Both the position numbers and the translations under genes were made by a program. Below, in pieces: positions 1,389 to 4,247 of a DNA stretch of 4,247 nt (position 1 is its first letter; every line of letters starts with the position of its first letter). The stretch lies in the IMG/VR virus record IMGVR_UViG_2778261674_000006; one strand, written 5' to 3'. The notes below the pieces were generated by a model. The model worked only from the letters and a program-made list of their open reading frames with translations, was not told the origin of the DNA and searched no databases. The DNA is from a virus (lineage: Duplodnaviria; Heunggongvirae; Uroviricota; Caudoviricetes).

Positions 1389-2023
1389 TTGTCGGTATAC
1401 CTCTCTCGTTTACTCAGTTGTTCAGGAATATGGTGCAGCAGCTCACCGTCGCCGCAGTAAATGGCGGCATGATTCGGCACCGATGAACCAAAGCAGCACA
1501 GCAGCACATCGCCAGGCTGCGCCTCTGTCAGTGGGACACGGTAAAAACCAGTCGCCTCCATATTGTCAAGATAGAGATTCTGACCGTGACGCCACCAGTC
1601 ATCCCCGCGATAAAAATCCGGCATCTCAATCCCCGCCAGATGATAAGCATCCCGGAACAGCGTGTAACAGTCCGTCACCCCGTGCTCAAAGCGCCGCCCG
1701 GTGAGATGCGGCACACAGCGGAACTTGTGAATCGCCCCCCGGCAGACCAGCCACCACGGCAAATCACTCTGCACCTGCAGCCGCCGGTCGGCCTCACTCA
1801 GCCAGGGCAGACCACCGGGGTGACTGTGGACCAGCGCCACAATCTCACCCTGCATCTCTGCCTGCAGCCAGTCCTCCGGAGCCATCCGGAAATACGCCTC
1901 CGGCTCACCGGAGATATTCACGCAGGAAAAATATCTTTCCTCCTCCGGCGTTCTCACCACGAAGCCGCACGACTCCGCTGGCGCACATCGCCGGGCGTGC
2001 GCCAATATATTGCTATAGGGCAT
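1286..2023 (-). CDS. K: Tail assembly protein K (lambda gpK family; MPN/JAMM-like N-terminal region plus NlpC/P60-like C-terminal region), 245 aa from the ATG at 2023
   Basis: ORF-track frame 1286..2062. It contains the JAMM-type motif HSHPGGLPWLSEAD preceded by EMQGE, and Cys/His-containing segments (GVTDCYTLF, HAAIY, HHIPE) typical of NlpC/P60 peptidases. I chose the start at 2023 because AGGAG (2033..2029) sits 5 nt upstream; the track's ATG at 2062 would put a terminator hairpin inside the coding sequence and lacks a ribosome-binding site. An in-frame ATG at 1885 is a third alternative. Confidence 0.82.
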   Translation of the reverse strand: MPYSNILAHARRCAPAESCGFVVRTPEEERYFSCVNISGEPEAYFRMAPEDWLQAEMQGEIVALVHSHPGGLPWLSEADRRLQVQSDLPWWLVCRGAIHKFRCVPHLTGRRFEHGVTDCYTLFRDAYHLAGIEMPDFYRGDDWWRHGQNLYLDNMEATGFYRVPLTEAQPGDVLLCCFGSSVPNHAAIYCGDGELLHHIPEQLSKRERYTDKWQRRTHSLWRHREWHASAFTGICNDLAAASTFV

Positions 2024-2034
2024 GAGAACTCCTG

Positions 2035-2059
2035 ATAAAAAACCCAGCCGAAGCTGGGT
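2035..2059 (-). terminator. Intrinsic terminator downstream of the antirepressor gene and immediately upstream of the K ribosome-binding site
   Basis: Minus-strand reading: ACCCAGC-ttcg-GCTGGGT (2059..2042) followed by TTTTTTAT (2041..2034), then AGGAG and the ATG of K. This is a classic GC stem plus U-tract. Confidence 0.6.
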
Positions 2060-2077
2060 CATTTCGTTGGCAATCTG

Positions 2078-2998
2078 TTAGTAGTGATGCAGTGAAGGAG
2101 GTAATTCTTTGTTCTTAAGTCTTAGCCATGCAGAAAGATTCGTTGGTCCGTCTGGCTCATTAATATCAATATCTCGCGTGTGATTGATTAAAACGTCTCT
2201 CGCCATTCCAATAACATACGAGAACTCATGACCGTAGTCGTAGCATCTGCAGGAATAGTTCGATTGAATTTGCTTTAGCGCCGGATACAGTTCGCGGAAT
2301 AATGCCTGTGAGCGGTTGGCATAATCCCATAACCATACAAGGCTGTTTGCTTCTTTTGCAGAAAGCTCGTTGGTTTTCTTCTCTTGTTTTCCGATGAATT
2401 CGCCTTCAAGTGGAATACGAGCAGCAAGTGACAGTGCTTCGGTAAACTGCTCCTCACTGATTTCTTTGTACGAACATCCAAAATGGGATTTCAGTGACGA
2501 CCACATGGTGATCATCGCCTTCGCCTGTTTTTCTTTTGGCAGAGACTGACCGCGACTCATGACGAGTTGTTTAATAGCTTCCTGCTGTTCAGTGGTGATT
2601 TTCCCCAGCAATGCCTTTTTAGCTTTGCGCGGGTTAATCACATGGCCTTTAGTCCAGTACTCGTAGAGCACATCGTCACACTCTTCCTGATACTGGATTA
2701 CCTTCTCGCGGATTTCAGGGCGGACTTTGTTAGGACTGATGGTTTGGAGCCAACCATTCAGTTTACGCAAAGCAAGGCAAATCATGGTCTGCATACCGCC
2801 AACTGAAGGTATTGCGATTTCCACAATACCTTTAGCAAATCTTTGTTTTAACTTTGTAAACTGTGAAGCCCAATCCATACCCATTCCCTCAACGATAGGT
2901 TTCATTGGGGTGTACGGTTCGCCGTTGTGATTGACGACATAAAGCTCTGCGCCGTGGAATGGCACGTTGATAGTAGATACCGCTGTTGCTATACTCAT
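2078..2998 (-). CDS. ant: Phage antirepressor (Ant-like; the N-terminal region resembles the P22 antirepressor N-terminal domain family), 306 aa from the ATG at 2998
   Basis: ORF-track frame 2078..3052. I chose the start at 2998 (MSIATAVSTINVPFHGAELYVVNHNGEPYTPMKPIVEGMGMDWASQFTKL...) because AAGGAA (3012..3007) lies 8 nt upstream; the 3052 start adds 18 residues that overlap a terminator hairpin. The protein resembles antirepressors from enterobacterial prophages, and the gene sits directly downstream of an Arc-like gene as in P22 immI. Confidence 0.75.
   Translation of the reverse strand: MSIATAVSTINVPFHGAELYVVNHNGEPYTPMKPIVEGMGMDWASQFTKLKQRFAKGIVEIAIPSVGGMQTMICLALRKLNGWLQTISPNKVRPEIREKVIQYQEECDDVLYEYWTKGHVINPRKAKKALLGKITTEQQEAIKQLVMSRGQSLPKEKQAKAMITMWSSLKSHFGCSYKEISEEQFTEALSLAARIPLEGEFIGKQEKKTNELSAKEANSLVWLWDYANRSQALFRELYPALKQIQSNYSCRCYDYGHEFSYVIGMARDVLINHTRDIDINEPDGPTNLSAWLRLKNKELPPSLHHY
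2967..2995 (+). promoter_or_regulatory. Candidate sigma70 promoter for an antisense (sar-like) RNA: TTGATA -17 bp- TATACT
   Basis: -35 TTGATA at 2967..2972, a 17-bp spacer, and -10 TATACT at 2990..2995 on the plus strand, inside the 5' end of ant and pointing away from it. The predicted transcription start is near 3002. Confidence 0.4.
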
Positions 2999-3001
2999 TT
3001 C

Positions 3002-3071
3002 GTTAGTTCCTTGGAAGTTACTGACATAGAAGCCCGATTTGTGTTCGCGCACTGTCGGGCTTCGCTATTTT
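3002..3071 (+). ncRNA. sar: Candidate sar-like cis-antisense small RNA (~70 nt) complementary to the ant ribosome-binding site and the arc-ant spacer
   Basis: It is bounded upstream by the promoter above and downstream by a plus-strand intrinsic terminator: stem GAAGCCCGA (3029..3037) / TCGGGCTTC (3055..3063), a 17-nt loop, then GCTATTTTTAT (T-tract 3066..3071). The transcript would be antisense to the ant Shine-Dalgarno at 3007..3012. As I recall, P22 has a ~70-nt sar RNA in the same position. Confidence 0.35.
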
Positions 3072-3238
3072 TATGTCCTAGCATTCTTCTCTCCAATCAG
3101 TCCGTACACTTTTCTCAATTGATAAATAAGTTCCGTGTTGAACTGTCGACACTCTTTTTCTCCATTTCTTTCAATCGCCTTCCTTACATCCTCTGGGAAA
3201 CGAACCTTGCGTTGATACATGTCTTTTGCTTTTTCCAT
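3071..3238 (-). CDS. arc: Arc-like ribbon-helix-helix transcriptional repressor, 55 aa (not in the supplied ORF track)
   Basis: Manual translation of the minus strand from the ATG at 3238..3236 gives MEKAKDMYQRKVRFPEDVRKAIERNGEKECRQFNTELIYQLRKVYGLIGEKNART, ending at TAA 3073..3071. A strong ribosome-binding site AAGGAG (3249..3244) lies 5 nt upstream. The pattern (basic beta-strand RKVRFPEDV, then N-[ST]-E-[IL]-x-Y-Q) resembles P22 Arc (...FNLRWPREVLDLVRKVAEENGRSVNSEIYQRV...) as I recall it. Confidence 0.65.
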   Translation of the reverse strand: MEKAKDMYQRKVRFPEDVRKAIERNGEKECRQFNTELIYQLRKVYGLIGEKNART

Positions 3239-3255
3239 CTCCACTCCTTAAATAG

Positions 3256-3318
3256 CCTCACTGTGGGGCAATCAAAATTGTCACACCGTGCGTCATTGAA
3301 GTCAACCCCACCGTGGGG
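3256..3318. promoter_or_regulatory. Three candidate operator sites with a CACNGTG core, centred at 3262, 3287 and 3312 (exactly 25 bp apart)
   Basis: Site 1, 3256..3268: CCTCAC-t-GTGGGG (one mismatch). Site 2, 3281..3293: tcaCAC-c-GTGcgt (core only). Site 3, 3306..3318: CCCCAC-c-GTGGGG (perfect 6+1+6 palindrome). Sites 1 and 3 also share the direct repeat CACYGTGGGGCA. Sites 2 and 3 fall in the spacers of the two divergent promoters; site 1 lies between the predicted ant-operon start and its ribosome-binding site. Confidence 0.55.
3277..3305 (-). promoter_or_regulatory. Candidate promoter for the arc-ant operon: TTGACT -17 bp- (TGt)GACAAT, minus strand
   Basis: Minus-strand reading: -35 TTGACT (3305..3300), a 17-bp spacer, and -10 GACAAT (3282..3277) preceded by a TGn extended -10 motif. 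Site 2 lies in the spacer. Confidence 0.4.
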
Positions 3319-3324
3319 CATAAT
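3296..3324 (+). promoter_or_regulatory. Candidate promoter for the mnt-like gene: TTGAAG -17 bp- CATAAT, plus strand
   Basis: -35 TTGAAG (3296..3301), a 17-bp spacer containing the perfect palindrome (site 3), and -10 CATAAT (3319..3324). Its -35 overlaps the -35 of the divergent arc-ant promoter (3300..3305). Confidence 0.45.
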
Positions 3325-3361
3325 TTACTTATTGTGAATTTTTCCTGTTTGGACTAATGGT

Positions 3362-3736
3362 ATGAGTAGAGAAGACCCTCAACTTCGGATTAGGCTTCCT
3401 GTTGAATTAAAAAAAATAATTGAAGCGTCATCAAAACAAAATAATCGTTCTATGAATGCTGAGATTGTCACTCTGCTTGAGTTGGCGATTCGTGTTTGTC
3501 GTGATTTTGGGCCGGAGGATGGTCCTATCGTTCAGCAGTTTAAAGAACAACTAGATGCGATAAACAGAAAATATGATAAAAGCGAGCATGAAAAACTTAT
3601 ACCTCAACTTTTAGAAATCATAGAAAAACAGAAAAAACAAGTAGATAAACTTATTAGCATGGTTGAAAGATCAATTCCTCTTTCAGAGGAATATAAGCAG
3701 AAATATCTTGGTGATGACAACAAAAAACCCACCTGA
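3362..3736 (+). CDS. mnt: Mnt-like ribbon-helix-helix repressor with an extended C-terminal, probably coiled-coil, region; 124 aa
   Basis: ORF-track protein MSREDPQLRIRLPVELKKIIEASSKQNNRSMNAEIVTLLELAI... aligns by eye with P22 Mnt (MARDDPHFNFRMPMEVREKLKFRAEANGRSMNSELLQIVQDAL, from memory): M-x-R-[DE]-DP, R-[ML]-P-x-E-[VL], N-RSMN-[SA]-E-[LI]. The C-terminal ~70 residues are rich in K/E/Q/L with a heptad-like pattern. The gene is divergent from arc-ant. Confidence 0.78.
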   Translation: MSREDPQLRIRLPVELKKIIEASSKQNNRSMNAEIVTLLELAIRVCRDFGPEDGPIVQQFKEQLDAINRKYDKSEHEKLIPQLLEIIEKQKKQVDKLISMVERSIPLSEEYKQKYLGDDNKKPT

Positions 3737-3752: not shown

Positions 3753-4247
3753 TTACTGCGAAAGCTTGTTAATGGAAAGGAAGCCGCCAAAGTTGCCGAC
3801 GTTATTGCGAAACTTACAGCCACTCAGGCATTTGCTGCATTTATCCTTCGTGATATCGGACGTTGGCTGGTCATATTCATCCGCGACTGCCGGACCGTTA
3901 TAACCGCACTCATCACCGCGATAGGTCCAGGTGCAGGTGTTGGCCAGCATGATACGTCCCGGAAAAACAGCGCCATCTGTTTCCGTCGGCGTGGACAGTA
4001 CAAAAGAGGCACTGACCGCGCTCAGTTCGCTGCACTGCTCGATGCGCCAGCGGCTGATCACCTCCTGCTCCGGATCGGCGTCGCTGTTTCCGTTGACGAA
4101 GTTCACCGCATCCAGAAAACGGGCATAAACCTTACGCCTGACCACCGTTCCGCCGACCAGACTCTGCAGGTCTTCCGCCATCCCGGTGACCATACCGTAC
4201 AGGTTAGAAACCGTCAGCGTGGGGCGCGTACTGGTGCCTTTGCCATT
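3753..4247 (-). CDS. L: Tail tip protein L, C-terminal ~164 aa; the 5' end lies beyond the window end
   Basis: ORF-track protein (from an internal Met) MVTGMAEDLQSLVGGTVVRRKVYARFLDAVNFVNGNSDADPEQEVISRWRIEQCSELS...CSKCLSGCKFRNNVGNFGGFLSINKLSQ matches lambda gpL as I recall it, including the Cys-rich C-terminus. The frame 3753..4193 is given in the track and appears to stay open up to 4247. Confidence 0.85.
   Translation of the reverse strand, partial: NGKGTSTRPTLTVSNLYGMVTGMAEDLQSLVGGTVVRRKVYARFLDAVNFVNGNSDADPEQEVISRWRIEQCSELSAVSASFVLSTPTETDGAVFPGRIMLANTCTWTYRGDECGYNGPAVADEYDQPTSDITKDKCSKCLSGCKFRNNVGNFGGFLSINKLSQ

Follow-up and report, generated by a model that had tools for sequence, protein, structure and literature searches.

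A probable homologue of the P22 sar antisense RNA gene in an mnt/arc/ant cassette located between lambda-type tail genes

Antirepressors decide between prophage silence and induction, and can also induce other prophages residing in the same cell. In phage P22's immI region, the antirepressor gene ant is the target of a small RNA, sar (Rfam RF00262), encoded in cis on the strand opposite to the spacer between arc and ant and to the ribosome-binding site of the latter. The P22 RNA was studied by Liao et al. 1987, Wu et al. 1987 and Schaefer & McClure 1997, as cited in a passage of PMC2629481; its structure and pairing kinetics are taken here from secondary citations of this kind and from our own fold. 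The established mechanism is a block of translation by pairing (PMC12197685); according to a passage of PMC12111858, which cites Wu et al. 1987, sar acts on P-late transcripts crossing immI. The RNA has been detected experimentally, at 1433 and 2724 reads per million (PMC13397905), and P22 is the only phage for which sar is listed in a 2025 review (PMC12197685). The surrounding genes form, in P22-like phages, the "ant moron" (Villafane et al. 2008, PMC2629481), described there only at the junction of gene 16 and gene 9 of P22-like podoviruses. The sequence analyzed here is a stretch of 4247 bp, in the following called the window, from a virus of the Caudoviricetes (IMG/VR record IMGVR_UViG_2778261674_000006). 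Its plus strand interval 2967-3074 is, judging from the sequence, very probably a homologue of the P22 immI sar gene, included in a complete mnt/arc/sar/ant cassette, which is located, as a moron, between the tail genes L and K of a lambda-like E. coli prophage.

The annotated P22 record OQ031658 places the Psar hexamers at positions +7 to +35 of ant; the sar RNA, 70 nt long, starts 7 nt past the -10 and has its 3' end 1 nt within the arc stop codon, and its terminator is located in the arc-ant spacer. A promoter is predicted at the equivalent position of the window. The match, TTGATA-17-TATACT at 2967-2995, had been pointed out by an earlier reading made from the letters only (here, the sequence-only reading), as a plus strand element inside the first codons of ant and pointing away from it: it is read directly in the DNA, and ranks first among the 6 sigma-70 matches of a promoter scan of the window, with 10/12 consensus positions plus the TG of an extended -10. 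The -35 hexamer, TTGATA (2967-2972), agrees with the consensus at 5/6 positions; the 17 nt spacer ends in TGC; the extended -10, TGcTATACT (2987-2995), is identical to that of P22 and is composed of the TG at 2987-2988 and of the hexamer TATACT at 2990-2995, over ant codons 2-3. Overall, the hexamers occupy ant codons 2-11 (ant +4..+32) and read away from the gene, so that position and sequence are those of the promoter of a sar-type element. P22 features a weaker -35, GTGTTA, at equal spacing, and matches the consensus at 8/12 positions plus TG. Judged by consensus, Psar should therefore be stronger in the window than in P22, and the window promoter is, by the same measure, the strongest of its family.

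Transcripts from this promoter are predicted to start at 3002, 7 nt past the -10 as in P22, and to extend on the plus strand to about 3072, for a length of about 67-71 nt; the 5' end is placed according to the P22 spacing, while the 3' end falls within the T-run. RNAfold, the use of which had been suggested by the sequence-only reading, folds 3002-3074 into two hairpins, at -28.3 kcal/mol (z = -4.88), and none of 200 shuffled sequences is as stable. Hairpin 1 (3002-3025) is formed by a 6-bp stem, GUUAGU/ACUGAC, and carries in its upper part the anti-Shine-Dalgarno UUCCUU (3007-3012). The other hairpin (3029-3063) is the terminator: GAAGCCCGA (3029-3037) pairs with TCGGGCTTC (3055-3063), and in the full structure 10 outer pairs are separated by an internal loop from an inner helix of 4 bp (GUGU/GCAC). 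A tail follows, GCTATTTTTAT (3064-3074), which consists of GC and then TATTTTTAT; its T5, at 3068-3072, overlaps the stop codon of the arc-like gene (3071-3073). The fold is thus that of a sar-type RNA of ~68-70 nt, with two stem-loops, of which the 3' one is an intrinsic terminator. The sequence-only reading had described the terminator, at 3029-3071, as a 9-bp stem directly followed by the T-run: both parts are present, while the GC between them had been overlooked. It had also placed the terminator about 70 nt downstream of the promoter, which does not hold, as the stem begins 34 nt past the -10, and ~70 nt is the size of the whole RNA. A simple terminator scan of the window, with a loop limit of 8, leaves out the hairpin at 3029-3063 for the sole reason that its nominal loop, 17 nt, is too long; the inner helix becomes visible in the fold. 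Since on the minus strand no U-run follows the hairpin, only plus strand transcripts would be terminated. A second, weaker plus strand terminator-like hairpin, GTGTTGAACTGTCGACAC followed by TCTTTTTC, is found at 3135-3152, inside arc, in antisense orientation and ~70 nt past the sar terminator: it could catch read-through, but hairpins of this level are expected by chance.

As the sequence-only reading had anticipated, the predicted RNA (3002-3072, plus strand) lies opposite the ant ribosome-binding site and, further on, opposite the spacer that extends to the arc-like stop codon. By complementarity, its target is the translation initiation region of ant (2996-3012, minus strand), where the Shine-Dalgarno AAGGAA is found at 3012-3007. 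The likeness to P22 sar in position and size, which the same reading had noted, is borne out by the OQ031658 geometry, by the RNA ending over the arc stop codon in both phages, and by alignment: identity to P22 is 64% over the RNA and 62% when the promoter is included, with z values of 5.8-6.2 against shuffled sequences. The conserved blocks are TTGCTATACT, which is identical in the two phages, TTACTGACA and GAAGCC...GGCTTC; intermediate forms connect the two sequences, and the fold predicted for P22 sar, at -29.5 kcal/mol, has the same two hairpins. The neighbours correspond as well, with mnt divergent and arc and ant co-oriented, and the whole embedded in a late, virion operon.

A number of differences are nevertheless evident. 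The window Ant is devoid of residue 2 (MSIA, where MNSIA, MKSIA or MTSIA is found elsewhere) and, because of this shorter N-terminus, the RNA starts 4 nt from the AUG, rather than 1 nt as in P22. The -35 is near-consensus, in contrast to that of P22; in the terminator, an internal loop is present and the tail is a proper U5, in place of the AACUUU of P22. Identity to the P22 counterparts is only 56% for Ant, and 33% for both Arc and Mnt. Finally, the host is a lambda-like siphovirus, with the cassette between L and K, while P22 is a podovirus, with the cassette between gene 16 and the tailspike gene: the "different phage background" of the sequence-only reading is therefore an accurate description.

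The sequence features, their homology to P22 and, on the plus strand, the way in which promoter and both helices are conserved and covary are all direct observations. For the last of these, relatives were gathered via the Ant protein, and not via the RNA, from 80 IMG/VR contigs plus phage and E. coli records. Of 89 sequences, 86 show TTGCTAnACT and, after it, a hairpin rich in GC; these collapse to 29 distinct RNAs (31 when Salmonella phage Oslo and phage JEP4 are included). Each distinct version, folded alone, forms hairpin 1 from +1, a 3-6 nt spacer and the terminator. In the promoters of the relatives neither the 17-bp spacer nor the TG ever varies; the -35 is conserved as TTGATA or TTGATT across all E. 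coli-type ant loci, and the -10 is only TATACT, TAAACT or TACACT, with T-12, A-11 and T-7 kept while the corresponding Ant residue varies among Ile, Leu and Val. In JEP4 and in E. coli E7476, RNAs of the window class precede a Rha-N/P22AR-C hybrid gene, whose first codons still spell TGcTACAAT. These two RNAs, at 1501-1577 in JEP4 (L087) and 2501-2576 in E7476 (L090), are 84-88% identical to that of the window, and lie next to a gene of the arc family, in P22-like phages; this version is carried by about 70 E. coli genomes.

In MAFFT alignments the arms of hairpin 1 lose register from one class to another; independent folds, set in a helix-anchored register, were used instead. Hairpin 1 occurs in 7 helix types, where 35/35 pairs are canonical, compared with 17-69% after sliding the partner by 1-3 nt; the observed pairing is reached by just 4 of 2000 partner shuffles. 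Double compensatory changes are found at pair 1 (G-C/A-U), pair 4 (A-U/G-C) and pair 5 (G-C/U-A/A-U). For the lower helix of the terminator, found in 11 types, 92% of the pairs are canonical in register, compared with 29-60% when slid, and no shuffle out of 2000 matches; pairs 5-7 switch between C-G/U-A, G-C/C-G and A-U/G-C. An A-U to G-C double change distinguishes JEP4, the nearest relative of the window terminator. On the plain MAFFT alignment, RNAalifold finds 5 terminator pairs with compensatory changes; it recovered the terminator only, because of the misregistered arms of hairpin 1.

The plus strand is more stable than its complement in 22/22 distinct versions, by 9 kcal/mol on average; in the window the two values are -28.3 and -19.5 kcal/mol. 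G.U pairs are present in every version, 1-3 per helix. Because these pairs make the plus strand fold better in all 22, the folding models indicate that the structure is selected in the antisense RNA, and not in the ant mRNA.

Some observations weigh against the assignment of the element to the sar family, or against its activity. The predicted RNA covers the Shine-Dalgarno and not the AUG: its +1 lies 4 nt upstream, one codon further than in P22. The exact version is rare, as identity of at least 99% is found in only 2/5426 E. coli genomes, and the prophage could be defective. In 3000 first-order Markov simulations of the window (same dinucleotide composition, both strands), a promoter match of at least 10/12 is expected 0.50 times per simulated window, and is therefore not significant alone; the expectation is 0.032 when the TG is required, and 0.016 for a perfect 9-bp GC-rich stem plus T-run, while promoter and terminator, jointly and in the observed arrangement, occur in 0/3000 simulated windows. 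Lastly, a whole-window Rfam scan at E <= 10 did not list sar and, when a 151-nt interval is scanned, RF00262 gives only 15.6 bits (E 0.84), with a full length match (1-68) at 3002-3066 on the plus strand, compared with a gathering score of 43 bits.

The whole-window result was not taken as proof that the element is absent, as both the P22 positive control and the narrow re-scan show that the model is narrow. Scores across representative relatives are graded: 97.8 bits for P22, 90.1 for L077, 85.7 for L018, 84.6 for CUS-3, 73.4 for L012 and 44.8 for TL-2011b, all above the gathering score; 29.5 for the Shiga toxin (Stx) phage YYZ-2008, 29.3 for L010, 28.7 for L034, 28.5 for L064 and 24.2 for Salmonella phage Oslo, followed by the window; for JEP4 no RF00262 match is listed. 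In the scored relatives the matches are always full length and always located just upstream of ant, and five other classes of clearly syntenic elements miss the threshold too, at 24-30 bits. Because scores are graded over full length matches in the same position beside ant, the RF00262 model is narrow, and the window is one of the most diverged versions. By its score, the element falls outside RF00262 as defined by the gathering score; by its position, its promoter, its two-hairpin architecture and its sequence, it is assigned to the homologous sar family.

By analogy with the characterized P22 system, the RNA would be produced, with ends close to those given above, and would repress the translation of ant. 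RNA polymerase would start at the extended -10 sigma-70 promoter in ant codons 2-11, at ~3002, and move away from ant; transcription would stop at the intrinsic terminator, with its T-run on the arc stop codon, to give a ~70-nt RNA with two hairpins. This RNA would be perfectly complementary to the arc-ant spacer and, through the upper part of hairpin 1, to the ant Shine-Dalgarno; pairing with any ant-containing mRNA would hide the ribosome-binding site, and block translation of Ant. Expected targets are the Pant transcripts, on which Ant would be kept untranslated after Arc shuts Pant down, and also the Q-antiterminated late transcripts, which would cross arc-ant in order to reach K, I and J.

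The same sequence features may be read in other ways. Psar is convergent with the candidate Pant described below: the predicted starts, ~3002 and ~3270, are ~270 bp apart, the same distance as in P22, and the window promoter is nearer to consensus than that of P22 (10/12 vs 8/12). The element might accordingly act mainly by convergent-transcription interference, of Psar with Pant and with the late operon, rather than by RNA-RNA pairing. We consider this improbable, as interference alone would not need the selection for plus strand pairing seen in both helices; moreover, the anti-Shine-Dalgarno is found in the upper part of hairpin 1, and the mechanism known for P22 is a translational block by pairing (PMC12197685). 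Interference is compatible with pairing, and may contribute to the overall effect. Another reading is that the conserved hairpins act on the minus strand, in the spacer of the arc-ant mRNA, as a processing site, a stabilizer or a device for translational coupling, the promoter hexamers being just a by-product of conserved N-terminal codons of Ant. Weaker hairpins do exist on the mRNA strand (-19.5 kcal/mol in the window), and the -10 overlaps conserved Ser-Ile-Ala codons. Yet the G.U pairs favor the plus strand in 22/22 versions, and the T-run is on that strand only; the critical bases of the -10 are kept in spite of the Ile/Leu/Val change, and TGcTACAAT is found even before the Rha-type N-terminus in JEP4 and E7476; P22 sar, in addition, is an experimentally detected RNA (PMC13397905). 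A role of the hairpins in the mRNA is, on these grounds, very hard to sustain.

The rarity of the exact version could also indicate an inactive relic, that is, a sar-derived sequence in a decaying prophage, either untranscribed or irrelevant. Lesions are indeed found among the relatives from IMG/VR contigs: in L075 a deletion takes out the 3' arm of the terminator, while the start codon of ant is replaced by ATA in L055 and by GTG in L080. In the window copy, however, the open reading frames of the four cassette components and of the tail genes on either side are all intact, the promoter is the one closest to consensus in its family, and the helices are perfect; decay is thus a quite improbable explanation, and a sar homologue, acting on ant by pairing, is the interpretation we favor.

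At least 7 interchangeable sequence classes of hairpin 1 are found, shuffled independently of the ant gene, of the terminator and of the virion type. The class of the window is shared by the lambda-like E. coli prophage, by the Salmonella siphovirus Oslo and by the P22-like E. coli phages JEP4 and E7476. One possible, though rather unlikely, explanation is that hairpin 1 classes are specificity modules, acting in trans among co-resident or superinfecting phages of the same class. If true, this would amount to an RNA-based cross-immunity, or insulation, of antirepressors among the lambdoid prophages of E. coli and Salmonella.

The window is occupied by lambda-type tail genes on the minus strand, with a foreign cassette between L and K. 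The tail genes are those for tail assembly protein I (747-1388), for K, with JAB plus NlpC/P60 domains (1286-2023), and for L (3753-4193, cut at the window edge). The ant gene (2078-2998, minus strand) encodes an antirepressor of 306 amino acids, recognized by Pfam P22_AR_N (9e-45) and P22_AR_C (4e-29). Its start codon is at 2998-2996 (CAT at 2996-2998 on the plus strand), and the Prokaryotic Genome Annotation Pipeline (PGAP) places the start at the same ATG in a 99.8%-identical E. coli prophage. A GTG-extended ant frame, starting at 3052, was rejected, as it overlaps conserved genes, and both PGAP and the homologues start at the ATG at 2998; a plus strand open reading frame at 2927-3337 (136 amino acids) was also rejected as a gene, being antisense to, and overlapping, conserved genes. 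The arc-like ribbon-helix-helix gene (3071-3238, minus strand, 55 amino acids) scores below cutoff with Pfam Arc (E 0.0012); its product is related to P22 Arc at E 2e-5, and the homologue in TL-2011b is annotated as Arc-like repressor. The mnt-like ribbon-helix-helix gene (3362-3736, plus strand, 124 amino acids) is divergent from arc-ant and matches Pfam Arc at 3e-7; the identity of its product to P22 Mnt is limited to the N-terminal 43 amino acids (E 2e-10).

Gene order and orientation, with mnt divergent from arc-ant, are those of a P22-type immI. In the 99.8%-identical prophage, found in E. coli CFSAN018748, the annotated order is Z-U-V-G-T-H-M-L / cassette / K-I-J, on one strand; the cassette has the orientation of the tail operon, just as P22 immI is co-oriented with the late operon. 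Because of the gene homologies and of this annotated order, the cassette can be described, at the sequence level, as a P22 immI-type "ant moron" in the tail operon of a lambda-like siphovirus. Like the "ant moron" of P22-like phages (PMC2629481), it would be an independently regulated antirepressor cassette in a late operon, with its own promoters and terminators, and highly mosaic; unlike it, the cassettes of the window and of Stx phage YYZ-2008 lie between the lambda-type tail genes L and K. In YYZ-2008 (L004), two unannotated open reading frames are present between L and ant, one mnt-like (1823-2167, minus strand, 114 amino acids) and one arc-like (2251-2424, plus strand, 57 amino acids), which indicates that a full immI cassette is located between L and K in this phage too. 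In the window, strong intrinsic-terminator-like hairpins are predicted on the minus strand at both sides of the cassette, at 3744-3727, just after L, and at 2060-2041, just after ant: late transcripts would require antitermination to get past them to K, I and J.

Upstream of arc-ant, consensus matches indicate a candidate Pant, TTGACT-17-GACAAT (3305-3277, minus strand), and a candidate Pmnt, TTGAAG-17-CATAAT (3296-3324, plus strand), both at 9/12. Two repeats, CCTCACTGTGGGGCA (3256-3270) and CCCCACCGTGGGGCA (3306-3320), 50 bp apart, are each an operator-like near-palindrome, CCnCAC-n-GTGGGG; a third CACCGTG core is found at 3284-3290, so that three sites are phased 25 bp apart. The operator-like core CACCGTGG resembles the P22 mnt operator CCACCGTGG. 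From their sequence, the repeats of this control region (3256-3324) are likely Mnt/Arc-type operators of different specificity.

Among other known small RNAs, c4 of P1/P7 (Rfam RF01695) also pairs around the ribosome-binding site of an antirepressor gene (ant), and thereby blocks its translation (PMC12197685). In contrast to the RNA described here, c4 is processed from the transcript of its own target and acts via short a/b recognition elements; sequence and structure are unrelated, and no C4 match is found in an Rfam scan of the whole window. A C4-type locus is present in TL-2011b (L002) at 41-239, upstream of a Bro-N gene, with scores of 77.7 bits for Rfam C4, 76.7 bits for isrK and 41.7 bits for the c4 a1b1 target. 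As this genome also contains a sar-type cassette, it has two different RNA-based antirepressor controls. SymR (Rfam RF01809) is likewise a cis-antisense RNA over a 5' end, with a similar terminator hairpin, and matches 2997-3066 at 16.5 bits; this falls far short of its gathering score, 61; only the terminator is alike, and no symE-like target is present in the window. The weak Rfam matches of SymR, CRISPR-DR28, hairpin-ribozyme and sau-6072 on the interval were all rejected, as terminator-driven and far below threshold.

The control layer provided in P22 by sar appears not to be limited to P22-like podoviruses, and would travel with mnt/arc/ant cassettes into lambda-type tail operons. With the same tail-located cassette in Stx phage YYZ-2008, a textbook regulatory RNA would extend to more of the prophages of E. 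coli and Salmonella. New here are the lambda-type tail operon setting and the degree of divergence; the biology itself is expected from P22, and the surprise is a small one. The literature covered deals with sar in P22 and P22-like phages; sar-like RNAs were found described neither for tail-region cassettes of the lambda type nor in work on small RNAs of enterohaemorrhagic E. coli prophages, but coverage was incomplete and this is weak evidence of novelty. A gap in annotation is also evident: Rfam sar detects the P22-like subset only, and at least 6 classes of syntenic, structurally conserved homologues score below threshold. A broader model of the Rfam type would annotate sar-type RNAs in many genomes.

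More than 100 E. coli genomes contain a match, at 85-87% identity, to the terminator half of the RNA (window 3027-3075). These matches lie within P4-like integrative elements, where they either face the 5' end of Icd-like genes or adjoin Ash-family genes. One such locus, in E. coli MLI106K4 (L089, 2468-2547), shows a weak match to Rfam SymR (34.8 bits, for a threshold of 61), and loci of this type may encode another cis-antisense RNA, sharing the terminator module.

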